In this document: piece after piece, positions 6,522-64,000 of the stretch
Position numbering within the stretch: the first letter of the stretch is position 1
Layout of the letters: the number at the start of each line of letters is the position of its first letter
NCBI RefSeq assembly: GCF_008831285.2
Contig: NC_045138.2
Span: 17,174,001-17,238,000 of the forward strand
DNA length: 64,000 nucleotides
Direction: 5' to 3'
Source: Nymphaea colorata
Lineage: Eukaryota
The notes under the pieces: generated by a model
The model's database searches: none
Told to the model about the DNA's origin: nothing
The model's input: the letters and a program-made list of their open reading frames with translations, nothing else
Made by a program: the position numbers and the translations under genes

Positions 6522-8587
6522 TCCTGATGCCGATACAACTCTAAAACAAAAAGGGGGTTGTGGAGGAGAAGAACGTTTTACTCACGTTTGGGTGGTGGGA
6601 TAACCTTCTGTTCACCCAACGAATGATCTTGACCAATGGTTTAACGAATGATCTTGACCAATGGTTTTCTTCATAGATACTGTTGCAAGTAAAAAACTAT
6701 GTATACACACACACAAATAGCTATCAACGAAGAGTTCCTCATCACAGAAAACCCAAAAAAAGAAAAATTAATGTTACTATTTCACTGTTGGGGCAATTCC
6801 ATGGCTGACATGAAATCCAACATCAAAGCTGAAATGGGTACTCAGAACTACCGCCAATAAAGCAGCATTTTCCATGAAGGAAGGCCCACAAGCTGACAGC
6901 CAAGATGCATTCTCCTAGCTAGTTCAAATTCACCTTCAATCCCTTGCATCTAAAGATCAGTAAGCTACAAAAAAAGGTTGAGAAAATACGACAGACATTT
7001 AGGTGGAAGAAAATAGGAATGTGAAGATGCATATCACCTCTAGTCAAGGGAATCTGGAAACATTTCCTAATCTTGGAGATACAATGGGAATACCAAAACC
7101 CAGTCCAACAAAAATTTGTTTGGATGTGAAATGCACGGCTGTTTTGGTTCTAGCTTTGCATAGTGCTCAAGACCCAAGTAGGAGACTGAGATGGAGATCA
7201 TTAAGTGCTAAGTTGAAAAATACAAGCTAGAAAGTCAATAAGCTGGGCCACACATACTTGACTAATTGGCTAAACTCAAGATTCTGTGAACAATTGCGAT
7301 CTTTCTACCTGGATGTTGGTGCTCTATCTTCGCTTGTTGGTTCTTGTCTAATCTGTCCACAAGGCCAAAAGAGGTGGAAAGACTTTCTCTGTGGACAGGA
7401 GGGAATGAACAATAGGTTATTGCAGGTGGTGGACAAGGAGATAAACTCCTCACCGTAGCGACAAAAAAGCGTATTATTAAAAAAAAAGTGTTCGAAATGT
7501 CAAAAGCTGGTTAGCCGAATAACATGTGGAAAAAAAGTTCTCTTAAAAAAAACATCAAAAATGAAAAAACCATTCGCACTTTTTTCACTTTTTCATGTTT
7601 TCCACATTTTTTCGTGTTTTTTGCAGCTTGTACTTACCAAAATTTTATTTCCACATTCTCCGCATTTTAATTTTAAGATTTGGGACACTTTTCTTTTTCT
7701 TGCCAAAAGATTAATTGTTTTAAAAATTTGCTGAAATTTTGCATTTTTTTTCCGTAAAAAACAACTTTGTCGTCTTATACCTGTACAAAAGCTCATCATG
7801 TAAAACCCGAAATCGATATTTGTGGCCATGTTCCTCACATACAATTCGCAAAAGGAAAATGGATCCAGTGCCAATGCTAACAACAATGGCTTTTTAAGTG
7901 AACCAATTAGGGTTCTGGTCCTCACACATGATGGTAAGACTAACCAGCTTAGAATAGAACTCAATTACTGGCATTCTCATACTATATGATCAGATATAGA
8001 ACCTCCTTTTTCTACTTAATGAGTTGAAAGAAAAAAAAGATATTAACAGTGGCTGATGATTAAACAACATTGTGGAACCTTGAATCGCATTTAAGGTTTG
8101 GTCCATGGCTTCGTCCATTTCAAAATACTGGATCAAATGTCACTGATTTTCAATTGATTAGTTAGATTCTACAAAAAGTTTCTACATTCAGTTACCAATC
8201 CAATTCATATTTTGGTATGTAGCAATCGAATCTGAATCCAAATTTGATATAAGACTGAGATTGAATAACGATCCAATCCATGGATATTCTTATGCTAGTC
8301 TAATCTTAATTAGATTTAAAAGAAAATGTTCCAAACTCAAGTGGAAATTTGGATTTGATTACCTAAAACATATTAGGTCGAATTTGTTATCTCCGAGAGG
8401 GTTGGTACAACGGTCTAAGCGGGGCCAGTAGACAGCAAGTTTCTGTATCTTCAAGTTGAAGCATAATTGTTGTACTTTTTTCAAGGCATCATAAGCAACT
8501 CTAGACCTTAAAAGATGGATGAGCGAAAGTAGGAGGGTTGCTTCAGTGGCAAAGCACGCACTCTCAAAGCGAATCCCCAAAGCACTC

Positions 8588-8697
8588 GTAACTTCAAATT
8601 GCTGAAGCTTCTAAATGAAATTGCTGAAGCTGACTGATTCATATCAGAGCAAAGTCAGTAACTTTAAATTGCTGAAGCTTCTAAATGAAATTGCTGA
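8588..8697. repeat. Direct repeat, ~40 bp x2
   Basis: gtaactt(c/t)aaattgctgaagcttctaaatgaaattgctga occurs twice. Confidence 0.8.
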
Positions 8698-10191
8698 CCT
8701 CTTATGAAGAGTGTTTATTCAGATAAAACTCTTTGGTAATGATCACCATGAATGACATACAATTGCCTCCATCAAACTTAGTATGGTGAGCACTTTTTAA
8801 GATTTGTCTAACTTGAATCAATGACTTTTAGTATCAAGAACCATTCAATACGATTGCAATGACCATCAAATTTCATAAGCACTTTGAACGATTTGTCCGA
8901 CCTGAATGAATCATCAGTCATTCACTCACTCGATGAGCTCTAAAATCAAGTTGAATTTGTTAAAGTTGGATTCAGCCATAACCTGAACTGTTTAAATATT
9001 CATAATCATAGTCCACAACTTAACATATGCACAATTATTGCAACTTCAACTTATAGGTGCAATTAATTCAACTTCAACTTATGGCCCATGAACTAGCTCC
9101 CATGAGCAAATGAAAACGAGATCCAAGGTTCTTTTCGTCACACATTATTATATCTCGACTCTTCGTGTCAAATTATGTAAGTATTGTCACCTCCACACAA
9201 TTAAACAAAATGCAAAAAATAAGGGAAATTTTTAAAAGCACGCTTAAGAATTGGCAGTAATGAAAAACATTACTAAATTTTTCTTATTTTTTAAAGGAAA
9301 TTTAAATTTTTCTATGGTTAGTCAAAGAGATATTGCTTAGCGCATTTAAACTTTTGTTCAATGGCTACTAAAACCATCATGTAATCATGTATTAATATTA
9401 ATGAAATTATAATTTATTTTCACTAGAAGTATTTTGGTTTTTTATCAGCTTTTCCTAAGCTTAAATTAATAATAACCTACCATTAGTAGGCAGATTATCA
9501 TTTTTTACTAATGGTGTAAACTTAGGCGACTTGTTGCGGGCTCCTCCTGAAAATTTACAAAAAGATAATTGTAGCAAAGTTAAATAAAATCCTTGACGCA
9601 TTTGTTTTGAAACTTTAGTTTTTTGCTCCAAAAAATTCTGGCATATATGTTAATGTTAGTGTAAATATGTCAAATAAATTAACCAAACCACTAATTTTCA
9701 CTGCCAATATTATTACAAACATATAAACAAATGGCTTTCATAATACATTAATCCCTTCAGAATCCTATCCGATGCATAATATCACCAGAAACATGCTGAA
9801 ATTTGTGAACTATGATTGTATTTCTCTTTTTGCTTTCGAGTTCCAAAGGGTTAGGCACACCCCTCTTGTTCATTCCGAAATAAGGTGATTTGTGTAAAGC
9901 GATCAGGCATACATCAGAAAACACTGAATCACCCAACATACCCAAGAAATCCGCAACTCCTATTCTAGTTTCTTAATTAGAAGGAAAGAAAAAGATCACC
10001 ATGTTCATGACCATGGTTATTTACACCCCAATAATCCAACCTTTACCCAACACCAACTTTACCTTGTTCAACAGATAGATAATATGAAAAAGAAGAAGGA
10101 AAAATAACATGAGAACTTTGGCTAAATTTTCTTTCTGTCGCTGTCTAATTGCCTAATGATATGAACAACAGAACAAACTCCTGGGTATATT

Positions 10192-10339
10192 GGCAGGAAG
10201 CAGAAGGAAAGAGTAACGAGAAAACTATTGGTATGAGTGGAATAGGAAAGACATAACATTTACAATATGGAGTAAAAAGCGTCTTCCCTATTCCACCTAA
10301 CCTGAGTCTTCCAGAGACTCCTTCCCTCTTCTCACTGCC
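10192..10339 (-). ncRNA. MIR482: miR482/2118-family precursor hairpin 1; predicted mature ~10230-10251 UCUUUCCUAUUCCACUCAUACC (3' arm)
   Basis: The 5' arm GGTTAGGTGGAATAGGGAAGAC (10281-10302) pairs with the mature-like 3' arm and there is an extended lower stem. The sequence fits the miR482 consensus UCUUUCCUAnUCCnCnCAUnCC. Confidence 0.88.
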
Positions 10340-10390
10340 CTTTCTCCATTGCTGCTGCTTGCGTTCTGCTGCTACTGTTGTAACAACAAG

Positions 10391-10541
10391 CAAAAGAAGC
10401 ACAAGGAAAGAGTGAAAGAAAAACCATGGCATGGGTGGTATGGGGAAGCCAAGAGCTCAGTTGTCTGCCAAAAGCATTAATGGCCTCCCCGACACAACCC
10501 AGCCTCCGTTTTTCTGAGCACTCCCTCCCTCTGCCCTTTTG
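10391..10541 (-). ncRNA. MIR482: miR482/2118-family precursor hairpin 2; predicted mature ~10426-10447 UUCCCCAUACCACCCAUGCCAU
   Basis: The 5' arm GGCTGGGTTGTGTCGGGGAGGCCA pairs with TGGCTTCCCCATACCACCCATGCC; flanks AGAAAAAC/GTTTTTCT and a further lower stem. Confidence 0.85.
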
Positions 10542-13148
10542 TCGCTTCCTCTTCAACTCTCTCCACCAAAGCTCCTAACCAGAAGAAGGGGTTAGATTAC
10601 AAGCCAAGCGAGTAAAAGGCCATGGATGGCAGGACAGTGGTTTTGTAAAACTGCTTTAGTTGCCCATGGTTTCAAAGGGCAGCTTCCTCCCGCTGTCCCT
10701 CTTTTCAATTCTTTAATGGGGATGCTCCTGCATGGAAGAACTGGTTTTAATGCGGGTGTTGACTCCGTGCTCGACAATAATGCAAGCTCTGGTGGCCCAC
10801 TGGTCACGGCCATCGAGGCAGCCGAGAAGCTGCCGGGTGGCGGGTGGGTATCCCATTTGAGAAACTCGGAAAACTTATTGAAGTGCTCGTGAATTGCTGG
10901 ATATTTCCGAAGGACTACGCCCAACAATAGTTGGGCACCCTACCATACTGTGGACACGTTTGCTTCCTGCAAATTCAGATAAGGATTTACTCATCTGTCA
11001 ACAATTGATGGGAGGGACGGCGGTCTGTGGGTCTGTATCTGACGCCTCCTAGTTTGACAGCGGAAAAGGCGGAATCTGATTAGATGGTATCTGTTTTTAA
11101 TTGATTTCTAGATATTGTTTTTTAAAATTTCAGACTAATTCGCTGGCTTGGTTGGACTTGGCTAAAAGTGTTAAATAGTTAGTTTCAGAAATAATAAAGG
11201 AAAAGTAAGTAATTAAGTAATATGTAAAAAAATGTTTAACGAAGTTTAGACTATACATGGCCTCCTTGAATCAAACACCGAATCAACCATCAATTCTGGA
11301 CTTATAATAACATTGAGTTAGGCTATATATATGATTTGTAAAGATTACATGGCACCTGAGAAATGGAAAAAGCAGCTAAAGAATGGTTATAAAAGAACGA
11401 CCGTTAGGGCTATGGGCTAAATAAAGTCAGGGGCATGGACTATGGGCAAATGTGTTTTCAAAGTCAGTAATCCTGTTGTGGAAGCAGTGAGCCTAGATTC
11501 CAATGAAATTTTTATAGCATTTTGAACTTTGTTGGTGGCTGCCATTTTTTAGAAAACTTTATAAAATTAGTTGTAAATGAAGGTTATTGCTGTAATTAAC
11601 CATCATATTCGCATTTCTAGCTCTTTTGAGAGTTAACACAAAAAGGTAGGTTGAAGACTGAGCTAGCGGCTCATTGAGGGGGCATTTGATTGCCCTTGTT
11701 CTAACATCCTCACGATTTGAGAATAATGGATTTAAGATCAAAACTCTACTTTCTCCTATCTTATCAACTTGATGTTTCTTGTATAGTTTTTCACACTTAC
11801 TAGTATGATTAACGGACAAGAGATGAGAGATTAGTTCCTCATACTATCAATTTGTTCTCTTCGCTTTCCGGACATGAACATTTTGATGCTGCAAACTGAT
11901 AGAGATTACCTTAACCTCAGCTTTGTTTATCATTGGATTAAAATGCGTCTGTTGTCAAACATAAACTGCGACAAGTGTCTACATGTGAATTAACCACAGC
12001 TTAATTTTTTTGCAGGCTTAGAATTGTGTGTTTGATTGGAAAGAGCTTCATTGGTTACCAGGGAGCCTTGCCTATCTACCAATTCTATAAATGCTTAACT
12101 TGATCGTGAAAACCAACGGAGCTAAATCAAGTTACCCATTATGTCGTTGTTTTATGTTTGGTACACATCTCAATCAATAATTTTCTTGCCCAGTGATTCT
12201 TGGGTAATGGATGTGATGGAAACTAGTAGGCAGCTGCCCAAACGCTCTCTTGTTTGGCGGTAGGATAAAATACTCTACTAGATGCACAGTATGAACCAAA
12301 AACGTACTTATACAGAACAATCAAACTGACCTAGCTGGAATAAGCTCACAACGCCTGAATGTGGGCTTGGCCAGTCTAACTCAGCGCAAGGCTCTCATTA
12401 CCGCGCAGACCATGCTTCTAAGTCCCATTAACCGGGTTTTTAAACCTTTGTATGGAATAAGTTTAACCTATGTGACTCAAAACTCAAAATTTCAAGACCT
12501 GTGAAGATGAAGTAGGATGTAACCAAAGTTGAAGAAGGGAAATAGTTACCAAAGTTTGATTATCTTACAATGTCTTTTCTTATCCCTTTTTATCTGTTTC
12601 TTCATCACTTATGGTGTGTTTTGGCTGCCACAAATGTCATTTTTCAATTTCAGAAAGATACGGAGAGAGTGGGGGTTAAAGACCCTTCAATCAAAATCTG
12701 TTTGCTTCTTGGCTCACATTTCCTATTTTTGATATGTACATGGCGGAAATTTATCCTCAAGCACCAATCTTCTGTTTTCATTTCCACGCAGAAGATAACT
12801 AAGAGCCAGCCTTTGCTCAAACATGGTGCAAAATCAACTGATCTTTAATAAAAAAATAAAAATAAAAATAAAAATTAAGCAGCCTGCTATTTTCTTATAC
12901 TCAGCAAATCTTCGTTGAAATCCATGTCTAAATGGCTTTTAGGAGCCGTGGAAATCCATTGAGCAGTCCTATATCACCCTTCTCAGTTGGTCCAAAAGTG
13001 ATCAATTTCCAAAGGATCAGTCATGTTATGTCACAAGTTGAAGAAGATGAAGTTACGAGAAAACATCTTTCTAAGTAACAATACTATGCATAAATAAGCC
13101 ATATTTGAATTAAGGAACATACCTTTGCAGCATCAGGGTTCCTCCATC

Positions 13149-13594
13149 TTGGCAAGGAGTAGAAGGAAAGAATTATGAGAAAAGTTAGGAATGGGTGGCA
13201 TTGGGAGGGTTCACGACCCAACTTCCACGAAGGCAAATCAGGTTTAGTGAGCAACCTTTCTAAAATAAAGCACTACCAGAGATCACACCGTTTTTTGTAA
13301 CAAAAACACTGCATTAGTGTTTCATAAATCTGTCCCAAAAATTGAGGCAGATTCATGAAACACTGAATTCCAGTGTTCCATGAATCTACCCCAATCTTTG
13401 AGGCAGATTCATGAAACACTAATGTAGTGTTCATGATATGAAATGCGTTGTATAGTTTCTAACAGTCCTTCATTTGAAAGAGATCACTCACCAAATTACC
13501 TTATTTTCCTTTGAGTATTTTGAGTGGAAGAGCATCTTCCCAGTGCCACACACCCTGGATTTTCCAATGACTCTTTCCCCCTGCCACATGCCTA
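13149..13594 (-). ncRNA. MIR2118: miR2118/482-family precursor hairpin 3 (long fold-back); predicted mature ~13186-13207 CUCCCAAUGCCACCCAUUCCUA
   Basis: The mature-like sequence closely resembles canonical miR2118 (UUCCCnAUGCCnCCCAUUCCUA). The 5' arm (13534-13594, GGCATGTGGCAGGGGGAAAGAGTCATTGGAAAATCCAGGGTGTGTGGCACTGGGAAG) pairs with 13149-13210 over ~60 nt. Confidence 0.8.
13305..13431. repeat. Nested palindrome (four alternating ~25-bp units), MITE-like, at the apex of hairpin 3
   Basis: aacactgcattagtgtttcataaatctg...cagattcatgaaacactg aattc cagtgttccatgaatct...cagattcatgaaacactaatgtagtgtt. Confidence 0.8.
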
Positions 13595-13648
13595 ATAACA
13601 TATCAAAAAGGTTAAGGAGCCAAGAAGCACGAACCATGGCTAAAGAAA

Positions 13649-13758
13649 GAAGGAAAGATTGATTGGAAGACTACGGAATTGGTGGATTTGGGAAAACAAG
13701 ATTTGTGTTGTCTTTTCCAATCCAACCAAACGCTACTTTTCCAGTCTCTCTTTCATTC
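13649..13758 (-). ncRNA. MIR482: miR482/2118-family precursor hairpin 4; predicted mature ~13673-13696 (UU)UUCCCAAAUCCACCAAUUCC(GU)
   Basis: The 5' arm GTTTGGTTGGATTGGAAAAGACAA pairs with TTGTTTTCCCAAATCCACCAATTC across a short loop; lower stem CTGGAAAAGTAG/CGTAGTCTTCCAA. Confidence 0.82.
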
Positions 13759-15496
13759 CCAGTTTGCACATGTAACTGGGCAAAGTCATCAGGTAGAGGA
13801 AAAAAAAAAAAACACAGGGAAAGTAAAGAGGATGAAATTGAAGGAGCCTCCTGGAGGAAGCCATTGCCATTGTTGATCTCATCTGGTACCCATCTGCAAG
13901 CATGAGCCTCACATTTATCAGCAGAAGAAAACAGCTCATCACAGCCCATTGGTTTACCAATACCGCTAACTTGGCAGGTGTCGGATTCAATTCTTCTAGT
14001 TTACAGCAGTAAAAAGGTGAAAGAAAGCATCAATAATTGAATGTTACTGCTCATTGGGATGCTATACTTGACTTTGACTAAGCATCGGCGATGGTGGCCT
14101 CACATCACAATGCGTTAATTTAGTTGATATAAAGCGCTGGCATACCCAGAAGGGGCATTGAGATTCGGTCTCAGAATGGAACTTTGGTGCAATCCCCAGT
14201 TAGTTTGGATAAGGGATGCCAATGGCGTGGATATAAGAAAAAATTACATATCGATGTAGTAAAAATGGTAGAAGGCTTTTGGAAAGGAATACGATGGGTG
14301 CCTCAAATGGCTTACAGTGGTAGTTGGGAGAAGGTACTGTGGAACGTTGAGTCTTCGTTTCAATTCTCGTGACTCGTGGGTGTTAGGTTCTCGGGCCATG
14401 TGGAATGGGTTCCGGTACCTACCTGATGTGAAAATGCATCAGTATCATGTCTAATGCTGAAAGCAGATCAAAACCAAGAAAGGTTTGGGGTTGCTCTTTT
14501 TGTGGCAGTAAGTCGTAACCTCTTGTTCATACAGAAGGAATATGATAGATATTCATAATTACCAAAATTCCGATGTGATTACATCTTAAACTTTGGATGT
14601 GTTTTTCATCAAACTAATCAATATCCAGATACTCGAACATGGAACTGGTTATCTCTGATTGGAACTCATCTGCTTAGTTTGAACTTCGGATTTACAGTCT
14701 TCCAAGCCATATTTAAAAAGGGACTTTATTTTGAAACTAACGTTCTTTTAACATGATTTTTTTAAATATTTATCATTATCTCAATGAAAAGGGGATATAT
14801 ATATATCAAAACACTAACACGGCCATTGTGAGGACATGCATTAAAAGCTGGATTTGATCTTTTGAATGTACTTTCTGTCTCATGTTAGTCGGCTTTGATT
14901 ACCTTCATGTAGTAATAGAGAACGAGCGCCTTACAATTCTCGAACAATGGCCATTTTAAAATGGACCAGTAAAACATATTAAGCTCCATTTTGTACTTAG
15001 ATTGCCATGGTTAAACAGGTAACTCATCTTCAGAAATTTCCCAGCACCAACACAACTTTTGCAAATAATTGTCAAAAAAGAAGTGTCAGGTTGCACCTTC
15101 AAAATGACTAGCTCTCAACTTATGGAAGTTGGGACCTCGGAGACTGGAGAGATGCTTCAGCTTGTAAGCAAATTGCGAGAAAAGTTATCTCAACTATAGC
15201 TAAAGCAAATGGTTTGCATTCAACTATAGATCAATTATATACATATTGAGATTAATACTCAAAGACAAAGCAATTTCAGCAGGAAAATTTAACTTCCAGA
15301 ACAAAATTCATTACATCAGGGAAATAACCTTTGACAGAGTAGCCCATGGTTCTAGGTTAAACTCTTCACGCCCATCAATATATATCCCATAATTAGAAGC
15401 GACACAAAACTGTCCTAAATCCAAGCAAAAGCTATGAAATAGACCTTCGTCACAATCGATAAAGTCCAACGAAGAGACAACATAATTTTGTTCTTA

Positions 15497-18080
15497 TTAA
15501 TCCTCCTCCAAATTGATGGAGTCCTTGAATTTTCCATACAGAATCTTCTTCAGATCGGCCATCTGCAATAATACCGAGGACTTCTCATCCTCCAGCTTCT
15601 CCAAATTCTTACCGACCTCCTCTTTCATCTTTTCCAGTCTATTCTCAACATCTTCCCTTGGCATGTGAGTGAAAACCTCCCCCATTTGGAACCTCACCAT
15701 GTCTTCATCTGACAGAATCAGCTCATTGCTGGCATCCTCCAGGTTCTCACTCATTTCCTATAGACAAAGTGAACCGGTCAGTAGATAAATGGGTCTCATT
15801 CAAAGATGGAGAGCAACAAAGGGAACAAAATAGCATGAGATTGTTTTATAGTATAGGCACACAAACACGAAAATGCTTCCTCATCCTGAAACAAAGAGCA
15901 ATAAAGAGACAGTAAGATAGCATGGTGTACAGTTCTCGATAGAATAGGCAGAAAAACAAGAAAATGATTCCTCATCCCAACTGCACCAAAATTTGCAAGC
16001 TTTGTCCTTGGATGATATCAAATGCACCTGAAAATCTTGAACCAATTAGTAAAATTTTTGCACAATCTGCAGTTAGTTGCAACAAAGCATTTTATATTTC
16101 ACCGGTTACAAAGATTAAGGCAGGGAAGTGCTTTGTATGACTGCAATGCCCCTATAGCCCATTGAAAGGACAGATACGATGCCTCCTATGAAAGAATCCT
16201 CTACTCCAACTTCCATGAGAAAAGGCATGACAGCTTACTACAAGGTTTGCTTAGGCAGCCATTCTCACTACACAAACCAATAAAAATTTAAAAAACAAAT
16301 AAAATAAGGCTTAGGTGAAAAGAGATACTTCTCTCCTCAGGATGCTGAATTGCTGACCTGTTTTGCATATCTCCACTATGCTTCATGGACCATGTCCACA
16401 TCTAAGCGGGAAGCGGAGACAGTCACCAAAGTTACTAAAAAGCTATTGGGCACATTCAACCGCAATAAGTTAGTGTCATGCTGCTAACCACAAAATCCAC
16501 TTTAGCAGGGACTCATAGGGGAGACTAGAAGAGTTGAAACTTGAACCTAGACCTAGTGCAGGACCATGAGGAGGCTTAGAAAGAAGGTATTTGGAGAAGC
16601 TTTGAAATCTAAAGGTAATCACTTCCAATTTTGGATAACCTAGAGCAATGGTGCAGTTGAGCTCCTATCACTTGTAAAATTAAGAACTATAGGACATAAA
16701 GCACAGACAGCGCTCCTGTAGCAAAAGGATTGGAGAGAGAATGAGATACCTTCTATTTTCTTACTGCATCCCTAGTTGAAGTCTAAGTTGAGGATAATGA
16801 CTTGTTCTCTCTTAGCCACAAAATGTTACAAAATGAAGCTAGTGAGCTGCTGATTTATATTCAAGTAATCTCTGTTCGGGTAAGTGCCCTACTTAGTTTG
16901 GGTTGGCAATTATGAATGTATAGGTATGGTTATGTGCAAAGGCTATTTATAATCTGGACGTATATGATTATGTATGTGTAGTGCAAGGAAGGAAAATGAA
17001 CTGATCATTCATAATTAGCAGGACTGCCTCTGTCCATAAATTTTTCAAGTACGTATCTAAAAACAGAAACAGGCTCATGCTTGGACATCTATGCAGTTTT
17101 CAATGAGTATGTTATGATCTGATCGTAAATATATACACATATATATGTTGCAAGGGTGTAGAGAGAGAGAGAGCTAGTGCAGTAACTATAGTAGATTAGA
17201 GTGTTGGTGGACTGTACTTGAAGTACACAGATCCATAGGCAGATTGGGTGAGCAGACCTTATAATTTTTTCATGTATGAGAATATTTAGACCGAAGTGCA
17301 GCATGTAGTTCTTGTATGTTGTTGTGTTTAGATGTATACAAAGATATCTAAATGCATACATATATGAAATAGAATATATATATATATATAGAGAGAGAGA
17401 AAGATGCATTCAACAATATGTCAAGTTAAACATTTATTTGTTAATGAGCATGGAATAATGTTGTTTATAATAACATGTTATGATAAAACTGTGCAATGCA
17501 TAATTCTATGAGGCATGCCTACTAGCTTAAAGAAAATAGAGATGAGATAACATCGTTCTTATATGAATATATATGACAACCATGTGAAAATATCAGAGAT
17601 AAGATAATATTGTTCTTATATATATATAATACATATATGACAATCAGATGGACATATCAGAGAAGAGATAATATTGTTCTTGTATGTATGTATATAACAA
17701 TCATGTAGACATATCAAAGAAGAGATGATGTTGTTCTTCCATGTATATATATATCAACCATATGGGTATATATCAAAGATGAGATAATGTTGTCCTTACA
17801 TGTACATATATGACAACCATATGGACATATCAGAGAAGAGATAATATTGTTTTTATATGCAAATATATGACAATCATATAGATATATCAGAGATGAGATA
17901 ATACTACTCTTACATGAATATATATGACAACCATGTGAATACAACAGGGATGATATAATATTGTTCTTATATGTATATATATGACAATCATATAAATATA
18001 TCAGAGATGAGATAATATTGCTCTTACATTAATATATATGACAATCATGTGGACATATCAGAGATGAGATAATATTGTTG

Positions 18081-18129
<49 letters not shown>

Positions 18130-26200: not shown

Positions 26201-29200
26201 TCATAAAGATAGGTACAGTTTGAAATTGTTTTTGACAGAGGATCAAGGAGGAATAATAATTAAATCGATGTAAAGAATTCGTTTCTACATGGAAATTTTT
26301 AGTGTACCATGAACAGCCCTACAAATATGTTTATGTAGACCATGTTGCCTATGTAAATAAAAAAGGATCTATTTATGATTTAAAGCGACCCACATGTTCA
26401 TGATTTGAAAGTTTTTATCAAAAATTCGAAAATATGGATTTATTCGTTCACAACTTGATTATCTCTTTTCTATTTCTGAGAAGAAAAAACGTGTGAAATT
26501 TTTTTCGCATATACATGGATGATATGATAATAATAGGAACCCTAAATAGAATATTAAGATATTAAGGGTCTTTTTAAGAAAAAAATTTCGATTGACGGAC
26601 CTTGGAAAGCTACAATGTTTCCTTGAAGCTGCAAATGACAGGATGGAAGATAAACTTGTTATGAGTTATGACTCAACAGAACACACTTGATTTGTTTGCC
26701 AAATTTGGTATGCAGGATTGCAAACCTGTAGCTACTCCAACTCCAATTCATTAAAAATAAAGTGAGAATGATGGAGAAGTATATTAGATCCTACCAATAA
26801 TCGAAGCGCAGTTGGCATTGACCTTCACTAGAGCATACATCGACCACATAATCAATCGGAAATCGCATTTCATGCACAAACCAAGAATTGTGCACATGGA
26901 ACCCATTAAAGGATTTTATGATACTTAATGGCACAATAGTAAATGGCTTTATTTATGAGAGAAGAAAGCAAAACCATGATATTTAATATTGTCTGCAAAT
27001 TCAGATATGGATTAGGTGGTGATCTAGATGAGAGACGAATCAGTATCTGAATACTATATCTTTATTAAAGGGAAACCTAATTTCATGAAGCAGCAAAAAC
27101 AAAAACGTAGCACTACGTCAAGTACAGAAGTAGAATATCGAGAAGCGGCATCAGCTGAATACAAATTAACTTGAGGATGAACTTGGAAAAATTTTACCAA
27201 AATCAGTTCTTTATTGTGACAACTAGATTGCCATTTAGAATTCATTGAATCTCATACAACAAGGAGAACAAAACATATTGAATGGAGCAGCATTTCATTA
27301 GACAAAAGATTGAACATTAAAGACCAGAAGCAACATATATTGGCAAAGAGAATCAAATTTCCAGGGGCGAAGGGAGGGGGGGCCCACCTAGGCCGTGGCC
27401 CCACCCCAACTAATTTAAAAAAAAAAAATTACATTACAAAAATTGAAATTTTTTGGTTGAGTAATGTATCTTTTAGATTCGGATTTAATTTGGCCCTACC
27501 CAGATTTAGTTTGGCCCTACCCGAATAAGTTTGATGGACCGTTTGGCCCGCCCCTGAAAAAAATCCTGGCTCCGCCCCTACAAATTGCAAACCATATTCA
27601 CAAAAAGACTAATAATTGAGGAGTCTCTAGTTCCTTAAATCAAATTGAGCATGGTATAAAGGTACGCACAACTTGAGGGAGGTGTTAAGATGTGCTTATT
27701 TATATTGTATCTTGCATCTAATAACGCCCTTTTTTCAAACAAAACACAAATAGTGCCATTTTATAGCGTCATTCATTATCTAGACATATTACTTAAGGGC
27801 AGTTTAGTCTTTAGTGCCCCAGTATATCTTATTTAGAGAACTTGCCCATTGCAGAAGCAATTGCTCACACATCTCTTCTACTGAAATCTGGTTCGGATCT
27901 GCTCACCTCTTCCTTTTTTAAGCATATAATTCAAATGCTAATATGAACATACTTTGTTTTCAGGAATTCTGAGGAAGGAATTCTCAAGATTATTTTTTGA
28001 GCATAGTTATGCAACCCCTTCATTTATATCACAAGAAAACCTCATTATAACTTGTACTTCGCATGATAAAACTTTTCTTAGCAAGAAAAATTCAAAATAC
28101 TGCTTCAAAGATATGATATGATATGTTTGAATAGAAAAGATGACAGACACTATAGAACCAATGAAAATGCAACAACCTTAAAGATGGTTCAACTATTCAA
28201 AAAATTAATTACCAATGCATCTTAGATCAGCCAATGAACAAATGAAAGACCAGATGTAAAGATGAACCAAACTGTACAGCATGCCAGAGATCACAGAAAC
28301 TATAACAATCATGATGAAGAATTTTAGAGGACAGATGATGAACCTGCACAACTTACTTTATTCTTAAATAGCACGCAGAAATTTGTGGCAGAGCCTCATC
28401 TCCTTCCCTGAATCAACCAAGCAACAAGATAGAAAAAAGAAGAGTTAGTAGACCATAAGAACATTAAAACCATGATCACAAGAGCGCTTTATCAATAGTA
28501 TTTTCTGGACGCATTTGTCATTATTGGAGTAATAAGAGAACTGTTCTCACTGGTTATCAGAAGCCACAAGGGAGAACCAAACATGACTTATTTTCTTTTC
28601 ACGCTTCAAGCAGGAAGGAGTAACCATGGGTTGAGATGGGATGCTTATCTCCCTCGACATAGCTGCTCGCTTCCGGCTAATCCCATGAAGCCTTCTAGCT
28701 TTACCCAACCCTGAACGTGCAGAAGCAGTGCCTTTTTTATCATCCTGAAGTTTTGGTTTACGAGCATGCTCCTTAAACTTGGCCTTGTGAACATTCACAC
28801 CACTATCGGGGTTGTCAGCTTGCTCTGCCTTGACAGAAGAAGCTTGAAAGTTTGACTTAAATGACTTCGACCTAGTTGCAGCCTCTAACAGACAATTCAA
28901 AGGTTTCCAAAGACCAGATTTTCCAAGCTGCTGCTCTGCTCCATTCTCTGTATTGATATTACAAACGTAGTTTGATGGCTCTCCATTGGATGGATTCTGC
29001 CAAAAGATTTCAAGGTAAACAGTTAACATATACTTTTGACAATGTAGTCGACAAAGAAAATAACCTTATTCATTAACTATAAAAGAAAAAGAACTCCATT
29101 CCTAAGAGAGAAAACAGCATAGAAATAAGCAAACATGGTAAAACCTCATCTTGTTAAATTGTGCAATACTAGAAATCTCACTTCAATAACTCCAGTTCCT

Positions 29201-32135
29201 TTGCTATATAAGAGTAATTCTGTAACAAGTTTTTGGTTGAACCTGATGAAAAGTTTCCCTGAAAATTCTGGTTAAAAGAAATCATTCCAATCCCATTATA
29301 TATTATGTAGGCATAATGTGATATGAGGAAACCATGAAAACATGGACATAGAGACTTTTAGAGCATAGAAATGTAAGAGAGAATGGAACCTGTGTCCTCC
29401 AATGTCGCTTTGAACAATAAATAATGGCTACTACAAACTTTCATGCCAATTAACATATGCTATTAGCAGACCATTCCCTTACTTACCTGCCTTTGTGTGA
29501 TTGTGTCTTGGGTCTCATGAGAACATGAGCTATCATGATGGTCTTCTGCATTTTCTGCTTTGATTTTTACAGGTTCGTCTTTGGCAAAGTTCGACCCACG
29601 TAAAGAAGCAGCTTTTCTAGCAATAGATTTAGTTCTTCTCCCAGTTAAGCCAGTTTGTGTTGTTACACGTGGGGTACTAATAACCAATGATGAAAGAGAC
29701 CTCTCCTTTCTCCTAACAGGCAATGTAATGGAAGGCACAATATCTGCTGCTTTGCCCTTGCTTCCTTTGAGAGGAAATATTTTGTTTCTCACATCTTGCA
29801 AATTATGATCTGGCCTGAATAAGGATTCAGTCATTCAGTAGCGTTATTCAATGCAAAAATAAGAAATGGGATATAGTATCCCAAATCAATTTATTTACAA
29901 CTCCAACAGAAACAGTCTCCAATGAAAAAAAAGTTATGGTGCAACCACTCTATGCAGGGCTAATCACATCCTAAAAGCTAGGGCAAATGTGACTCAGTTC
30001 CAGTCATTTCATGCAAAGAACTCATAGTGGTATTCACCAATTCAAATGCACTGACTTAAAGAAACAGATTGTCAAACAGAGACACATACTAAGTACTGAT
30101 AAAATTGTTTGACATTGATAGTGTGAAACAAACATAAACTAGATTCAGATGGAGAAGATTGAGGCCAGATGATTACGTGTAGTGTGGTTACGGATGAAAT
30201 GTTGGCAGTTCCATGTAAGACTGGACAATGAAATGTCAGCCAGACCAATTCTATTTATGCAGCAAGGTGACATAAGTAATGATGTCTGGCTTGTAAACAT
30301 CAGAAACAATTTAATCAGAGAAAAATGAGGACTACCAAATCACAACATTAAATTAGAAATCAAGTGCACACCTAATAATTAATATGTGAATGATTTATTT
30401 AATGACCTCTAGGAAAAGGACATGATATCAAGCAATGGTTAATCCTCATTTCAAACAGAAAATCAAAACGCTACACCCTTTTATTTTTCACCATCGTTGG
30501 CTAAGATGGAGATAGAGAAACAATTATCACAGTTCTTCTAGTCAAGAAAAGAAAACACATTTGGCATTGCCTGCAAAGTAGTAATTATTCCATACTGACA
30601 TAGTTCTAAGGTTGGTAAAATAAGTATCTGGATCAGTTAGTGATTATACCTTCACCATTAAAAAAAAAAAAAAAACATTTTATTTAACACAAAAAAAATG
30701 GTAACTCCCAAGTATAAAATTTTGGAAGGAAAGATGTTGAAATGAAATCCTTAAGAAAATACCCAAATCAAGGGGACTGTCATCGCAATAAACGTCTAAG
30801 CAGAATGTTTCTCAAAAGTTACTTGTGAGTACAGATCTAATGCCTCAAAACTTGGAACTTAGGGACCAGTTTTGAGAAGGATTCAAGGCTCGCACGAATG
30901 AAAAGGAACCCAACAAGATGAATTGACAATATCACATAAGAACAAATCAATTACATTCTAAACAAACAAGATAGAATGACAGAGCTACCTGAGTTTCTCC
31001 ACAGGAACACAACCGAGATCAGTGTTGCAAATAGGGCAGCAGTCAACCTCCTCATCAGTGAGTTTCTCATAAATACACCTCCTGCAGACTACCACATTTG
31101 AAAACAAAAACGTGTCAGACACAACACTAGAAGCATTTTACTGATACACTACCCAGAAAAAAAACTTTGCCAATTGAAAGCAGAAGTAAAAATAAGCATG
31201 ACCAATAAATGACAACTACAAATCACCAATTCTGACAAATACATGCCCATTCACGTCTGGCTGTCAAGCTGTGTCATCCAAATTAATTATCTTCTGCATC
31301 CAAGTGCAATTTTCTCCAGCCGCTTTGACCAAAGATAGAGAGACACAATGAGGATCTCATCTTTGAGATCCAAAAGTAACTAGATATAGAAAGTGAAAGT
31401 GTTTACACCTGTCTTAGTGTATGCTATATTGCTATATGATTGCAGTTACCGCAGATATGTCCAAATTCTCCTATAAGCCTACAAGTCGGCTAACAAAAAA
31501 TACGCCCTGTTTCCATGCCAATCCCAAAGTAAATCATCAAACTTACGCATTTTTACTTCATTATGGACTTGACTTCGCAGGTTCATAAAGAATCATCCAC
31601 ACCCGTTTCATTACTTATGGACCTTTAAAAAGTCAAAAAGAAAGAAAAAAATTTACATTAATTTCACATTGTTTCTTCAGCGTTTCTGCAGATAGGATAA
31701 CCCAACTTTCTTCATGTTGATTACAATGAGTCTTCAAATTTTTCACGCCACATGGAGACATGAACGTCACTATTTCAACTGCGGCTCACAAACTACACAT
31801 CCAGGGCCACCGATTCACGAGTGCATGCCATGCATATGCACAATATAAACATAAACGTAGATCCAATACGGATTCGTGCACTTCTGCCGTCCGCGTGCAT
31901 AAGCACAGAGAGAGAGAGAGGCTCGTACAGATCAGCAGCTTATTTATGCAGATATTAGAGTAATCGAGTAGAAGAATAAATCAAACTGACTTAAGGAGCA
32001 AGAGAGACCCAGAATCTTACAAGTGTGAAGGCATTCCGAGATGGTGGTGGCTTCTCTGAGCAGTTTCTTGCAAAGAGGGCATGTCATGCAAGCTGCAAGG
32101 GTCACCCTCCGGACCTTCACCACCTGGTTCATCAT
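23240..32135 (-). CDS. DRIP2: DRIP/BMI1-type C3HC4 RING E3 ubiquitin ligase (PRC1 component), ~428 aa. Exons 32021-32135, 30989-31088, 29487-29814, 28551-28996, 28357-28407, 24952-25024, 23240-23413.
   Basis: RING CPLCKKLLREATTISECLHT|FCRRCI...CPIC; LRPDHNLQDVRNKIFP; RRKERSLSSLV; LWKPLNCLLEAA; C-terminal RAWUL-like WFSLVAS...LPQISACYLRIK|DGNIPVSFIKKYLVKKLDL...VMVLAYAR. Phases are consistent throughout; the exact DRIP1/DRIP2 paralogue is not resolvable. Confidence 0.93.
26040..27935 (+). mobile_element. Decayed Ty1/Copia RT-RNaseH fragment with PPT and the start of a 3' LTR, in DRIP intron 5
   Basis: Frameshifted relics resembling ARLVAKGF..YDETF (~26135), DVKNSFLHG (~26265), YMDDMIIIG (~26510), SKKQ..SSTEVEYR (~27090) and RTKHIE (~27265); PPT TTGAGGGAGG followed by TG at 27683. 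Outer ends are approximate. Confidence 0.85.
27362..27580. mobile_element. hAT-type MITE nested in the Copia relic
   Basis: TIRs CAGGGGCG...CGCCCCTA; 8-bp TSD caaatttc/caaattgc. Confidence 0.85.
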
Positions 32136-43040: not shown

Positions 43041-46000
43041 TCAACTCCCAACCAGACCTTTGTATCGAGCATATGAAACGATAAGGGAGAACAGCAACAA
43101 ACAACCAACTCCAGAAAGGATAACCACCTATTAAATGCACAATATGATTAACATTGTCGAAAAGCAAAAAAAGTACAAAAAAACTGATAATAGAACTTGG
43201 CAGTTTACCCATTTGAACATATAGCCATGATCATCGTTCCATGTATAAGGGATATTCATGCCGAAAATTCCAGCAACCAATGAATATACGGAAAGGCAAA
43301 CCGTGCCAGAACTTAGGAAGAGCTCCAGCTGCCATCAATACAACAGAGGCAATTTGAGAATATGATACACTAATCCACCAAAACGAATGATCATATAAAA
43401 AGAGCCACAAAGCAAATGTGAATTGACAAAGTCAAATTGGTTTCTTTAAGCACTGGTAACAGGTATATTTCTTTATTATAAAATGATGTGACATGGGTAC
43501 TTCCAATGATCCACGTCATGCAAGCACTTTTGGGTGTAATTGCTGGGAGCTTCTAGGAACTGCCATAATATCCAGGCTATATTTTATTATACATTGCACA
43601 CACTTTATATGCATATGCTTTTTTAGACATATTTCAATGTTATCCAATGCCGTTAAACCATCACAACCAGATGTCACTTTATCCCTTTCTGAAAAATAAT
43701 TGCTTAAATACAATGTATGAAACATAGACGATGCAAACATGTAGACAGTTATATCAGATGATAGAGGTACTCAAAGCAATCACCTGAATCAGCTGGTTCC
43801 GATGATTATCAAGCTGGAAAACATGGCAAAGAGAAGGTTTAGTCTGGAGACTTGCATGGTCAAGACAAAGGCCATTAAGACAGCCAATTACCTGGATGTT
43901 GATGTAGTCTTCTGTATCATCGATGTATTCACGCAGCTGCGACGTACAATGGAAAATTGTGCGTTACACATGAACATAAGTGATGGAGATGATACATGAT
44001 ATAAGCCTTGAAAATATATTATTTAGCAAGAAACAAGTCTCTTAAACAAAACTCCCCAAAGTTGTTCATAGAAGCTGAAGGAAACAATGCCATCGGCCCA
44101 TCGCTACTTATTTAACAAAAATTAGTTTAGCTACTCTATGGTGCTTTCCACCTTCCAAGCTCAGTCATGCCTTAAACTCTCAAAATAGTCGAAGACTGAA
44201 AGCTGTAGAGATTTTTCCTTTTTCCTCTTTCATAATTGAGCTTACAGATCTAGCTTTGACATAAGCATATGATCTCAAAAGGGCCATTCTGAAGAGGATT
44301 ACTACTTAAAAATATACTAATAACCTCAGAATCGTCTAAAGTGTAACAGCCCATTCCTTCTGTGTTCTTTTTCTCCACCGTCAACTATTTTTGACATGCA
44401 AGAACATCATGCAAGTAAGAAACTCATTCTACATTCTTTGTGCATGCCATGAAGCAAGACGGTTAGCCAGAACAGTTTTTCAAAACGTCAGATTCCCAAC
44501 TTGATTATTGGAACACAAGTAAGCAGAGATGAAGCAGATGGGCCAACTTATAAATAGTAAACTCCAAGTCTTTAAGTCCAAGAATGAAAGCAATCAAGAG
44601 CAATGGAGCACAACTTTATTCACAATGCACAAATAATCAACCTACCACCTTTTTTTCATATCTTGACAGGCAAAACTTTGCTGACCTAACAATTGGCCAT
44701 CACAGAAAAGAAACTTTATAAGGAAATGGCTTATCAGTGATAAGATAGGTTCTTGATTCCATTACATTATCAGGCTCACAAAAAGCCAACAAGACTTTGG
44801 CAAGTTGAGAATCGATGTAGGCTGTCAAAAAATTGATAAAACAAAAAAAATTGATAAAGGAAATATAATTATACTCTTTGCTCCTGGCTAGACAAGATGT
44901 TCCTGCTGTTCCCAGCCTTCATTAGAAAGCACCAAAAAGTAAAGGAACAATAACTAAGACACATACATGCACACACACATTCACATATACAAATCCAAGA
45001 AACAAACTGGCATGTGCATGGGCATTTTATTCTACTTGTTAGTTATTACAGGAGTAGTGCTCACCGTGGTAAGCCTGTTAAGTGTGCCATCAATCTGCAT
45101 AAAGTATGCCTGCAAATGGCCAGATTTTTTGTTTAAACAACACAAGGAATTGAAAAGAGAAAAAGAAATTCAACATATGGATTGATTTTCTTTTAAACCA
45201 CAAAAAGGGATTGGAAAAGAAAAAATAATGCAACAACTTTTGACCTCGAGTAACATCTCAAGCTCCTCAATATCATTTTCATTCCCATGAACCGTTGCAG
45301 CACTAACACGGCTAGCCCTAGATATTTTCGAAGCAATTGTAGGAGAAGCAGGAAACCAGTTTGGTGCACCGGAGCCACTGATGGGAGAAGTTGCACCAGC
45401 TGATTTCCTTGTTAAATAAAGATCTGCCATATCATCATCATCATCCAATAGTTGTTCAAGTTCATCTCTGACCTGTGAACAAAAAGCATTGGGTAGTGGA
45501 CAGAAGCTTGTAAGGGGAGAAAGTTCACTCCAAAGGAGATAGAAATCAAAGCATGAAAGCCATGTGATTCATAATTTTGAGACTAGTATTACATGAAATT
45601 CTAATTTTTCATCTAAAACTAATCTCTGGAATAAACAAAATAGCCAAGAGCCTGACCAAGTCTATTCTTGAAAATTCATCTTCAGCATCCCAGTTGATGC
45701 AAAAAGACACAAGCTTCAGGACTGCAAACCTAACCCCAAAGGAGTGGACAACAGAAACACCATTAGCAAACACCACACCTTTAATCCCACCTATCAATGC
45801 CATTCATGATTACATTCTCTTAGCCCTTGTATAAAGCTCTTTGGGTTCCAAAATCTCAAGTAGTCTAACTAGTCATTTGAGTCGGATACTGACCGACCCG
45901 CTAAGCCACATGGGTGCCAGTACAGATGTAGGTGTAAGTACAGCAGTGCAGGTGTGCAAATTGTAAAAATATGGGTACAGAGGTATGGGAAGGCATAGAT

Positions 46001-49000
46001 ATAAATTAAAATTAGACATTTAGTTTTCATGTTGTTGCTTATTTTGTAATATACCTGTGCTTTATAGACTCAGTAAAAGTTGAGGATGCTTAAGAAAAAT
46101 TTTAAACAGTTAATAGAAAGGGAAGTTTAAAGGTGATGAAAGGAAGTAAATCCTTCCCTCCCCAAACTCTCTCTTTCTCTCTCTTTTGAGTCAGCTGACA
46201 CTGTCGAGGTATCTTTAAAAGCTTCTAACATTTACATTTTGGATCAGGTCTAACCCAAACCCAATCCAAAATATAGCCAATTGCCCTGTCGCACCCTGTC
46301 TCTGAAAGGGCATACCTACATGAGTACGGCAGGGTAAACCTTGTACCCATGTTACTTAGCCAACCAGTGTTTCAAACCGGTGACTAGTTGGTCCGACTAG
46401 TTAACTAATCAGCCTACTAGTTGGTCATCCAATTAATTCATGAAATATAGATATGTGCATTTTTAGTTGGATATATATATTTTTCTGCACTTAAGCAAAA
46501 GCATATAAGATTATGTATTTATAGTCAATCAACTTGGACCAACGAATCCCAATCAGCCATTTTGGGGTCTTGAATAGCTTGGGTCCGACTTCCGATTTTG
46601 ACAACTTAGCATAGGATGTATTGACTACCAATTATCACAAATGCTGTGAAAATCAATTAAACTTCCATAGCGTTTCAAGTTTTAGCTCCTCCATAGAACT
46701 CCTAGTTACATAAAACTGACATGAAACATGGCCACACCTAAAGGTGATTTGAACAATGAAGACAACCTTACATTTCAAATTCTCACCTAATATTAGATTC
46801 AAAATACTTTGATCATAATATACAAATATTCTTGGCTTTATAGTATGAATATGAACCTTTCATTTTCCGCATTTGCTTTGCTGAATCCTATTGTGGCCAC
46901 ACCTAAAGGTGATTTGAAAAATGAAGACAACCTTACATTTCTAATTCTCACCTAATATTAGCTTCAAAATGCTTTGATTATAGTATAGAAATATTATTGG
47001 CTTTATAGTATGAATATGATACTTGATTTTCTGCATTTGCTTTGTTGAATCTTACTCTGAATCTGTCATTAACAACAAGAGATTTGTTAGGAGTTACAGG
47101 AAGCATCAGGTGGAAGATAGACCTACAGTTGACAGAAATGAAGAGCTCCTAAGCTTCAAGTGATTTGTTAGGGAGAGACAAAGTCACAAAAGGAACTTAA
47201 GCTTCTTTTTCTAAATGCAATTTTACTTACCAACAATATCTTAATCAGAACAGTAAGTTAACTACAGTCTATCTTGGGGTTCAAACGTTAGTCACATATT
47301 GCATCCTTTGCCAGAAATAGAGGGAGAAAAAGAGAGAAAGAGATCTGAAAAAATGTTGAAATCCAAAAGTTCCTTCTATTCATCAAGAAAAACCTTAACA
47401 CCAGCAACTCAGGAGCCTATGACCTAAAGATTTAATCATCATTTATTGAGAACGAGAAAAAACCTTTTGAACACGACCAGTCAACCTTGTCATAGCACTC
47501 TTCAACTTCCTCACACGGTCCAAGTTCCGGCTGCTAATCTGCACAAAATCATATCCATTGGCTTTGAGAGTGCAAATAAGAAAATCAAGAACTTTTCAGT
47601 GGAATCTTCTTTAGATAGGAATAGATGGTTTCTCCATCATGAAGTAACAAAATGATACTGATTGGCTTCCACAGTGCAACTAAGAATACCAAGATGTCCA
47701 CACTGGAATTTTCTTTAGGTAGGAATAGACAGTTTCTCTGTCATGAACTAGGATGAAATGATACCCACTGGCTTAACGAGTACAAATGAGAAAATCAAGA
47801 ACTCCATACTGGAATCTTCTTTAGATAGGAATAGACAGTTTCCCCATCATGAAGTAGGAAAAAATGATACCCATTAGCTTCCACTGCACAAATGAGAAAG
47901 CCAAGTATTCCATTACTGGAACCTTCTTTAGATAGGATTAGACAGTTTTCTCCATCATAAAGTGGAACAAGAAATTGGTTGAGAATGGAGACATAATTCA
48001 CGTCTTTCTAGACCAGAAGTCTCAACAACATGGGTCAAGAAAGGTGCTGATGGCTGAACTGGAAAAGTTGGTGGCTTCTAAGCTCTATTATATTCTTCCC
48101 AAAATGTATAAATTAGCCCATGTTCAACAAAACAAAACACAGTGTCATAAATTTTCCTTCTCATCCGGAACATGAATCTTGAACATCTTACAAGCAAATG
48201 CCCATAAAATATACAAGAAAATGCATATGTGTGTGTGTGTGTGTGTGTGTGTGGAAACTAAAGCTTCATTGACATGTATCTCTGAACTGGATTCTAACAG
48301 CTACCAATCCTAATAATGCTGACTACTGTGTCTATATCTCCTCTCCCCTTCCTGTTAAATCATGTTTAACAAGGAAGAAGACTAAAGAGATAGACTAGGA
48401 AGTCAGGATGTCAGGATGTTTTTAGTTGATAAGATCTAGTGTACTCACGCACACACACAAACACATATACTAGGCCCTGACGACCAACAAAGCAAGTTAA
48501 ATTTTGCAGGAGAATCGACAAACCTTGGATGTTAGCTCATCTAAGGCAGGGTAAGCAGCAGTTTCCAGTTCTGTTGTGCGTGCATCAAGGAAGCTGCAGA
48601 TACCTTCTAGTGCAACCTCTAAAGCTCGGAATTCAAATGGAGGTTCTACAATTCAGGATCCAAAATTATCAGGGACTCGTATGCCACATGTGTGTGCAAA
48701 GTTCTTAATGCTCAATGATAACTCCTTGCATCCAAAAATCAGAAGAGGCAAATGAAAAATAATTTCAAGGTCAACAATCATGCATGAACTAATATATACA
48801 AAGAGGGCTATTTCCTCGAGCAAATGGAGTTTGCACTTTGCACACTATTATAACTTTGGATTTTTGTGTTATTTTAGGCTGTTCAGTATTTGACTTTATG
48901 GATGTGACCCAGTGCAGGTTTTCTAGTAGGAACCTATTTTAGGTCACCAACTTTACAACACATACGTAGGCATTCAGAGGACTTAAGAAGTTGGTGGATT

Positions 49001-51176: not shown

Positions 51177-51381
51177 CACATCTCCGACCGAAGACCCTGA
51201 GCTAGGAGAACACCGGAATTTATGGATCCGGAAGGGGTCGGCCCCAAAACCCTACAATCCGCCGGAGGAACGAACCCTAGTCGCCGGAATCGTAACGGGA
51301 AGGCGAATTTAAGGCCGACGGAATCAAGGATAAAGGCTGCGGCAGTCGCCATCGGGAGGGGAGGGCCTCTGGTGGAGGGAG

Positions 51382-63596: not shown

Positions 63597-63908
63597 ATGC
63601 ATTGGCAGCAGAGGCTTAAGCGGCCGAGGGTGATCATCGTCTCATTGCTAGCCGTCTCTGTTCTGGCTCCTATATTGTTCTTGTCTCACAGAATCAACTA
63701 TTTCTCGAATTTTTCGGGTAAATTTGCGAACTCCCTTGTTCGTTTACTTATTTTGGATGGTCTGTCGAGGTGCCAATTTCCGTTTTCTGAAAAGAAGGGG
63801 AGAAGGCATCCAGATTTCTTACCTATAGCACATTGGTATCTTCTAACTGTGTTTGCTTTTCATCCATTTGAAGTGCGCAAGGAATTGGCTGAAGAGTTCA
63901 GCAATATC
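63597..63908 (+). CDS. Galacturonosyltransferase GAUT5/6-like, 5' end. Exons 63597-63717, 63874-63908; continues beyond the window.
   Basis: MHWQQRLKRPRVIIVSLLAVSVLAPILFLSHRI...|VRKELAEEFSNI: a type II membrane anchor resembling my recollection of the GAUT5/6 N-terminus (RILILSLLSISVFAPLIFVSNRL...RREFIEELS). The catalytic domain is not in the window. Confidence 0.75.
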
Positions 63909-64000
63909 GTAAGTGTCAAAAGGATTCAATTTCTTTTTTCTTTGATTGTTATTTGCTTTTGAAACGGAATGGATGTTAGTTTCTATGCTATTTATGTTCC

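Follow-up and report, generated by a model that had tools for sequence, protein, structure and literature searches.

The miR482/2118 microRNAs (miRNAs) target the P-loop motif of NLR (nucleotide-binding leucine-rich repeat, or NB-LRR) genes (PMC4651229). Several described loci of this family resemble the one analyzed here, a cluster of four hairpins (H1-H4) on the minus strand of a 64,000-nt stretch of the genome of the water lily Nymphaea colorata (NC_045138.2, positions 17,174,001 to 17,238,000; hereafter the window, in whose coordinates all positions are given). In ginseng (Panax ginseng), MIR482a and MIR2118 lie in one unigene (PMC3433442), and columbine carries two MIR482/2118 clusters (PMC8368212; also 10.1101/2021.01.20.427321). 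The Norway spruce MIR482q-s precursors are stem-loops longer than 300 nt that hold a miR482/2118 duplex, with one arm of MIR482q resembling NB-LRR coding sequence (PMC4651229), while cotton MIR482/2118D has been spread by GosTE, a miniature inverted-repeat transposable element (MITE) of the PIF/Harbinger type (review PMC10004981).

The N. colorata cluster shares with those of ginseng and columbine the head-to-tail order, the spacing of tens of bases, the single direction and the miRNA on the 3' arm; in contrast to them, it consists of two pairs 2.6 kb apart, apparently a duplicated dicistron, in a plant of the Amborella-Nymphaeales-Austrobaileyales (ANA) grade. A polycistronic MIR482/2118 arrangement is already known and not surprising; the odd feature is the elongated hairpin H2. 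Like the spruce precursors, H2 bears a miR482/2118-like duplex in a very long stem-loop, but in a Pfam search its extension does not resemble NB-LRR coding sequence, and it contains a dispersed palindromic repeat. As in cotton, a MITE-like element is physically tied to the locus; whereas GosTE multiplied the MIR locus, the element found here lies within one hairpin loop and lengthens its stem.

Part of the cluster has been recorded before. The 75-nt precursor of the 'sly-miR482d-3p' row (row 21) in Table S10 of the N. colorata genome paper (PMC7015852) is identical, letter for letter, to window positions 10302-10228, which lie within H4. In the same supplement file, H1-H3 were not found by position, nor H2 by motif, and the cluster arrangement was not found either; the table resembles a loose homology scan and includes animal miRNA names. 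N. colorata miR2118 has been reported at a low level, below 100 reads (10.1101/2020.04.25.061721), and the ANAgdb database holds 141 N. colorata miRNAs from small-RNA sequencing, with cluster information (PMC11437788). One supplement of PMC11437788 contains none of the cluster motifs; the loci may nevertheless already be annotated in ANAgdb. The expectation that annotation would miss the cluster is only partly borne out, since H4 is already in print and a sequencing-based miRNA set exists. The four core sequences, in U and T forms, were not found in the main text of papers (supplements, one of which contains H4, lay outside this search), and the literature search, in which most hits were judged by their listing and which did not extend to subscription journals and supplements, returned no description of this Nymphaea cluster or of a MITE inside a MIR482 loop.

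The best explanation of the locus, with a probability of about 0.7, is a cluster of four miR482/2118-type hairpins that likely arose by duplication of a two-hairpin unit and is probably transcribed as two units, with 22-nt miRNAs predicted to act on NLR P-loop codons and to trigger phasiRNAs (phased, secondary small interfering RNAs). It draws on direct observations: paralogous hairpins, P-loop-complementary arms, the likeness of H1 to H3 and of H2 to H4, RNA cover of both pairs and retention in relatives.

Hairpins, family assignment and precursor quality

The original prediction of four minus-strand stem-loops in two pairs holds at the coordinates of Table 1, and each of them folds better than its shuffled counterparts. 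The folding z-scores against dinucleotide shuffles are -3.6 (H1), -15.6 (H2), -8.4 (H3) and -9.2 (H4), and none of the 200, 60, 200 and 200 shuffles, respectively, folds as well as the native sequence; a repeated folding of H2 gave -203 kcal/mol and z -17.3, with 0 of 100 shuffles as good. The linkers within the pairs measure 47 nt (H1/H2) and 48 nt (H3/H4). Two corrections apply to the original prediction: H2 is a single 444-nt foldback with an extension of about 320 nt, which had been missed, and H1 is weak.

Table 1. Positions of the hairpins and associated features in the window
Feature	Position	Strand	Candidate mature	Star	Remarks
Hairpin H1	13640-13762	-	13675-13696 or 13673-13694	~13709-13731	MIR482/2118-like, weakest of the four
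Hairpin H2	13149-13592	-	13185-13206 (5' U) or 13186-13207	13536-13556	444-nt foldback, miR482/2118-like duplex at base
H2 extension	13222-13530	-			Imperfect middle stem enclosing repeat; no counterpart in paralogue H4
MITE-like palindromic element in H2 loop	13270-13468	unassigned			Ends inferred by eye
Hairpin H3	10388-10544	-	10426-10447 (5' U)	10483-10504	Canonical
Hairpin H4	10192-10339	-	10230-10251 or 10228-10249	10280-10300 or 10282-10302	Canonical
Spacer between pairs	10545-13148				2.6 kb, non-coding; RNA-like contigs present, X19 raw reads absent at 11008-12677
Main unspliced pri-miRNA of H1+H2 (likely)	12370-13885	-			Ends approximate, strand inferred from structure
Transcribed block over H3+H4	9700-10700	-			Second unit, or 3' part of read-through transcript

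The hairpins were also expected to lie outside any credible protein open reading frame (ORF); in line with this, a Pfam search of nine ORFs or frame pieces that overlap or neighbor them gave nothing at the cut-off (best E 0.07). The ORFs at 10148-10456, 10592-10939, 12546-12845 and 13674-14000 were considered as protein-coding, a reading that was rejected for lack of Pfam support. A 49-codon ORF at 13736-13882 on the minus strand begins just upstream of H1 and runs into it; it is a candidate for a miRNA-encoded peptide (miPEP), has no Pfam match, and spans a T run in which one base, at 13800, is missing in five of nine reads of RNA run X19. A weak likeness to the H1 lower stem (81% over 43 nt) at 63466-63508 is purine-rich and probably of low complexity.

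The 22-mers of the four 3' arms form a single 4-copy direct-repeat family. Translated on the plus strand, they read GIGGFGKT (H1), GMGGIGRV (H2), GMGGMGKP (H3) and GMSGIGKT (H4), so that all four decode to G-x-x-G-x-G-K/R and are complementary to P-loop codons. In the six frames of the window, this peptide pattern occurs at exactly these four sites and no other; in 200 shuffled windows its mean count is 0.02 and its maximum 1, with 0 of 200 reaching 4, a control that is post hoc, as the pattern was written after the sites had been seen. The Rfam model MIR2118 (RF01911) matches three hairpins, each below its gathering score: H3 at 45.8 bits (E 9e-7), H4 at 30.2 bits (E 0.006) and H1 at 18.1 bits (E 5.1). 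An Rfam search at the gathering score yields no hit, and H2 is far longer than the MIR2118 model. Collectively, the complementarity of the 3' arms, the sub-threshold MIR2118 matches and the identity of H4 with a row labelled miR482 support the predicted assignment to miR482/2118, which is sound; the register could be that of miR482 or that of miR2118, offset by 2 nt. A match of the H2 distal stem to MIR5565 (56 bits, gathering score 80) was rejected together with others on that stem, as they reflect a generic hairpin.

Precursor quality was assessed by the plant MIRNA criteria of Axtell and Meyers, 2018, which allow at most five mismatched duplex positions, at most three of them asymmetric, and a foldback of at most 300 nt (10.1101/213314). 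H2, H3 and H4 each show three mismatched positions, H2 in the 5' U register only, and H1, H3 and H4 (123-157 nt) remain within the length limit. H3 and H4 thus appear to be the best precursors of the cluster. H1 has a minimal folding free energy index (MFEI) of 0.70, its plus strand folds better than its minus strand (-41.6 vs -35.6 kcal/mol), and it is probably poorly processed. The proposal that the cluster delivers four family members is doubtful for H1 (mismatches) and H2 (length); H3 and H4 pass the structural criteria.

Small internal loops lie about 12-17 nt below the star strand in all four hairpins. A lower-stem rule of about 15 bp is cited in PMC4651229 and cutting from base to loop is described in PMC9864873; lower stems with such small loops would fit this base-to-loop mode. 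In a strand-blind alignment of the arms, G:U pairs outnumber A:C pairs on the minus strand (46 vs 23, p 0.008), and this excess comes mostly from H3, H4 and the H2 middle stem.

Probable duplication, conservation and transcription of the two pairs

The lower stems are alike in all four hairpins, with z-scores of 2.6-6.1 for the 3' lower stems in six of six pairwise comparisons. Outside the lower stems the likeness becomes selective: on the loop side preceding the miRNA, H1 and H3 alone resemble each other (z 6.0; the other five pairs, z at most 1.5), and in the sequence that follows the star, H2 and H4 alone do so (z 4.8; the other five, z at most 1.4). Since H1 resembles H3 and H2 resembles H4, the two pairs likely represent, as judged from these alignments, a duplicated two-hairpin unit. 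The order of duplication is uncertain because similarity of the flanks has been lost and H3 and H4 are also close to each other.

In relatives, H3 and H4 are more conserved than their flanks. One contig of run X15 (organism E) carries at most 3 of 20 substitutions in 10299-10541 (H3) and 17 in 10542-10826 (Fisher p 0.005 in the worst case). In the X15 contig over H4, eight of nine substitutions are listed, and none of these falls in the mature or star strand. Between 9922 and 13829, X15 holds two haplotypes, one nearly identical to the window, the other with most of the listed substitutions and two indels in common with X9 (organism D), a pattern that would suit a hybrid or allopolyploid. The X9 and X15 contigs skip 10827-10864 (38 nt) and 11537-11715 (179 nt), which have non-GT-AG ends, are replaced by a few other letters and are probably spacer indels.

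RNA evidence was drawn from 8 of 24 sequencing runs. In the raw RNA of X19, which is unstranded and of which about 6% was read, the bins 9672-11007 and 12678-14013 are covered and 11008-12677 is empty, a dip that may stem from the read filter. Each pair is bridged by single contigs. The contigs over the upper pair start at 12403 (X1) and 12369 (X2), and the longest pieces listed end at 13829, 13875 and 13884, with contig cover absent in the bin from 13963; those over the lower pair span 9802-11189 (X1), 9700-10689 (X2) and 9930-12234 (X9). Contig depth is 681 or 449 over H1+H2, 3-7 in the spacer and 16-27 over H3+H4, values that were not used as expression levels; the uncovered parts of X9 (12485-12967) and short gaps in X2 were not counted as evidence. 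Given the short linkers and the contigs that span both hairpins of a pair, the members of each pair are likely co-transcribed.

It is more difficult to decide whether all four hairpins share one transcript, as the original prediction had it. A tetracistronic pri-miRNA of about 4.2 kb, running from 13.9 to 9.7 kb, would be the main source of all four, and the two covered blocks would then reflect fragments left by processing, a poly(A) site within the transcript or artefacts of the filter. This possibility, although less probable, gains from the tiling of the spacer by contigs in X1, X2, X5, X9 and X15, among them the X9 contig above and an X15 contig at 10299-12573, with the X1 and X2 contigs tiling the whole span, and from the lack of clear promoter similarity between the pairs. 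It is opposed by the failure of any contig or read, among the runs examined, to join H2 to H3, by breaks of the X1 and X2 contigs (one study) at 12369-12403, repeated in X2 at 10669-10689, and by the X19 pattern, in which both pairs are covered and the spacer is not; this two-block pattern is a weak hint against a single four-hairpin transcript.

Under the preferred two-unit reading, the main unspliced transcript would start at about 13.89 kb, mostly end at about 12.4 kb and carry H1+H2, whereas H3+H4 would derive from read-through of the spacer and perhaps also from a second start at about 10.7 kb, with the four-hairpin transcript probably a minor form. DCL1 would likely cut these transcripts from the hairpin base; for the 22-nt miRNAs released in this way, base-pairing with P-loop codons in NLR mRNAs is predicted, and they would trigger secondary phasiRNAs.

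Several points weigh against this interpretation. With respect to the family, none of the four hairpins reaches the Rfam gathering score (85 for MIR2118) and H2 is unmatched; the H2 22-mer either begins with C or is offset by one base, and it encodes R at the position that is K in the other three. As for the precursors, H1 exceeds the permitted duplex mismatches, with six or seven positions by register in the minimum free energy (MFE) fold, and H2 exceeds the foldback limit. The H2 basal stem lacks the G:U bias (6 vs 6), the distal stem shows it weakly (7 vs 5), and the arm limits for this count were set by eye. Concerning the duplication, no significant similarity was found between the pairs in the upstream, linker and downstream flanks (z -0.2, 0.2 and 0.6), and H3 and H4 are also 79% alike over 58 nt. 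Transcription is affected as well: the contig runs are RNA by guess, X1 and X2 belong to one study, and contig depth is uninformative on level, ends and strand; clear raw RNA cover of the hairpins is seen in one of three raw runs (X19), as X23 shows chiefly repeat reads of off-locus origin, and only two reads of X20, both partial, fall there. Processing, the 22-nt length and NLR cleavage are predictions.

Some further features of the transcribed region were recorded. The two X20 reads ('OTHER' library, 90 nt) lie partly in 10006-10339, with about 33 bases each by depth estimate, and possibly represent short inserts. A/T-rich, TATA-like words at 13913-13920 and 10711-10717 on the minus strand, identified by eye, stand about 25-30 nt upstream of the start of cover of each pair. 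Splice sites noted by eye were rejected; raw reads contain no joint, and the contig joints are non-GT-AG and look like indels in relatives.

The elongated hairpin H2 and its palindromic repeat

H2 departs from the other hairpins in a star-to-miRNA distance of about 320 nt. Above its basal duplex, an imperfect middle stem is formed by 13469-13530 pairing with 13222-13269, in which G:U pairs exceed A:C pairs on the minus strand (11 vs 4). This stem encloses a near-perfect inverted repeat at 13285-13451 with two 49-nt self-palindromic units (13316-13364 and 13372-13420) and a tandem-repeat signal of 56-nt period and 2.4 copies; in the distal stem, 65 of 81 alignment columns are Watson-Crick pairs. 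A cruciform fold of the repeat is disfavored, the long stem having a probe pair probability of 0.99. When the repeat is removed in silico, the remainder still folds as one 245-nt hairpin.

The core of H2 is regarded as dispersed because off-locus reads and contigs match the core only, with loose flanks. Reads of a different transcript, loose-ended on either side, align to 13320-13360 with three differences (8 in X19, 17-21 in X23), and 22 of the 24 loose-end rows listed (24 of 111 rows) fall at 13320-13420, in four of four contig runs and four of four organisms. The element is thus short, non-coding and dispersed in several copies, in the manner of a MITE, and the core of H2 is likely such a small, palindromic, MITE-like transposon; within the window, no second full copy is present. 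By eye, the off-locus flanks carry TTGGCA in 5 of 10 cases on the left and the complement TGCCAA in 3 of 12 on the right, with a degenerate trace in H2. These motifs resemble the ends of Tourist elements; a literature search on the motif returned unrelated papers. The element is not filed as Tourist/PIF-Harbinger, because this label is tentative and no TAA/TTA target-site duplication is found at its inferred, uncertain ends, where the minus-strand flanks are GAA and TTT. Such a duplication is described as a Tourist/PIF-Harbinger trait (PMC10004981).

The complete H2 hairpin is contained in contigs of relatives, at 13172-13601 in organism B, 13122-13884 in organism D and 13143-13829 in organism E, the last of which differs from the window at one position and is not independent. 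Since the long hairpin is kept in all three, it is older than their split; the short loop of H4 in turn suggests that the H2 extension was probably gained. The gain of this extension, including the palindrome, would likely have been tolerated, since the lower stem common to the hairpins, and not the loop, would determine where the first cut falls.

On a more tentative view, H2 is no longer a precise miRNA gene, its distal stem being diced by DCL2/3/4 into heterogeneous hairpin- or MITE-derived small interfering RNAs (siRNAs), which would leave only two (H3, H4) or three real miRNAs. The excessive foldback length, the extensive pairing and little strand bias of the distal stem, the dispersed repeat at the core and the 22-mer with a non-U start or shifted register are consistent with such a fate. 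Conversely, the basal duplex and lower stem are intact, with three mismatched positions, the whole hairpin has been retained in relatives, and the long spruce MIR482q-s precursors do give miRNAs (PMC4651229). A combination of both outcomes is rather speculative: H2 would be a dual precursor retained by several water-lily taxa, in which DCL1 would free an NLR-targeting miR482/2118 at the base, and the rest of H2 would be diced into small RNAs of the middle stem and the MITE-like repeat. If so, the repeat-derived small RNAs would silence many transcripts carrying the repeat, and one Pol II transcript would couple immune-receptor silencing with the silencing of MITE-tagged RNAs.

Predicted targets, neighboring sequence and significance

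The window itself contains no P-loop target site. The predicted action on NLR mRNAs has an improbable competitor, in which the miRNAs mainly trigger reproductive or lineage-specific non-coding phasiRNA-generating (PHAS) loci. Precedents exist, as miR482/2118 members of spruce (PMC4651229) and columbine (PMC8368212) hit both NLR and non-coding loci, and litchi members acquired a non-coding target (PMC10955497). However, all four 22-mers of the cluster keep the in-frame G-x-x-G-x-G and differ at amino-acid-changing positions, as expected when tracking varied NLR P-loops, and NLRs are expanded in N. colorata (RNL, TNL and CNL families; PMC7015852); the two roles are not exclusive. The idea that the H2 long stem derives from an inverted fragment of an NLR gene in the style of spruce MIR482q-s (PMC4651229), with the short hairpins as trimmed descendants, is very improbable even though the middle stem has no assigned origin, given that stops break all six H2 frames, that none of four frame pieces (22-45 aa, low power) reaches a Pfam cut-off or matches NB-ARC, so that neither arm appears to encode an NB-ARC-like peptide beyond the miRNA, and that the distal part is the dispersed palindromic repeat.

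In the neighboring sequence, a prefoldin-subunit exon lies on the same strand about 1.5 kb upstream of the cluster, at 15503-15757 on the minus strand (PF01920, E 2e-15); it is expressed and apparently spliced at 15759. A reading of the cluster as the 3' untranslated region (UTR) of this gene is unlikely, with 14014-15015 uncovered in four of four runs, which is weak evidence. A DRIP-type RING E3 ligase gene is found at 28547-29834, an exon of which shows 97% identity to a Nymphaea thermarum protein; among the matches listed, Victoria cruziana follows at 86%, and the remaining 118 reach at most 68%. The exons at 45170-51251 and 63588-63962 are presumably MRS2-like and GAUT-like, as judged from the ORF list. 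A second dispersed repeat occupies 8550-8700, where off-locus reads with loose ends at 8550-8612 adjoin a 40-nt direct repeat, and a tandem array of about 57 nt and 9.6 copies at 17538-18096 adjoins a TA microsatellite.

In gymnosperms, miR482/2118 acts on NLRs as well as on non-coding PHAS loci; in later angiosperms, mostly one of these roles is kept (PMC4651229). Water lilies, as NLR-expanded plants of the ANA grade, are placed between gymnosperms and later angiosperms, and the four defined candidate miRNAs make the question of NLR or PHAS targets testable with existing Nymphaea small-RNA sequencing. The elongated H2 is the one feature worth small-RNA follow-up, as it offers a naturally occurring case for asking whether a conserved miRNA persists after the insertion of a repeat into its loop and gains new small RNAs.

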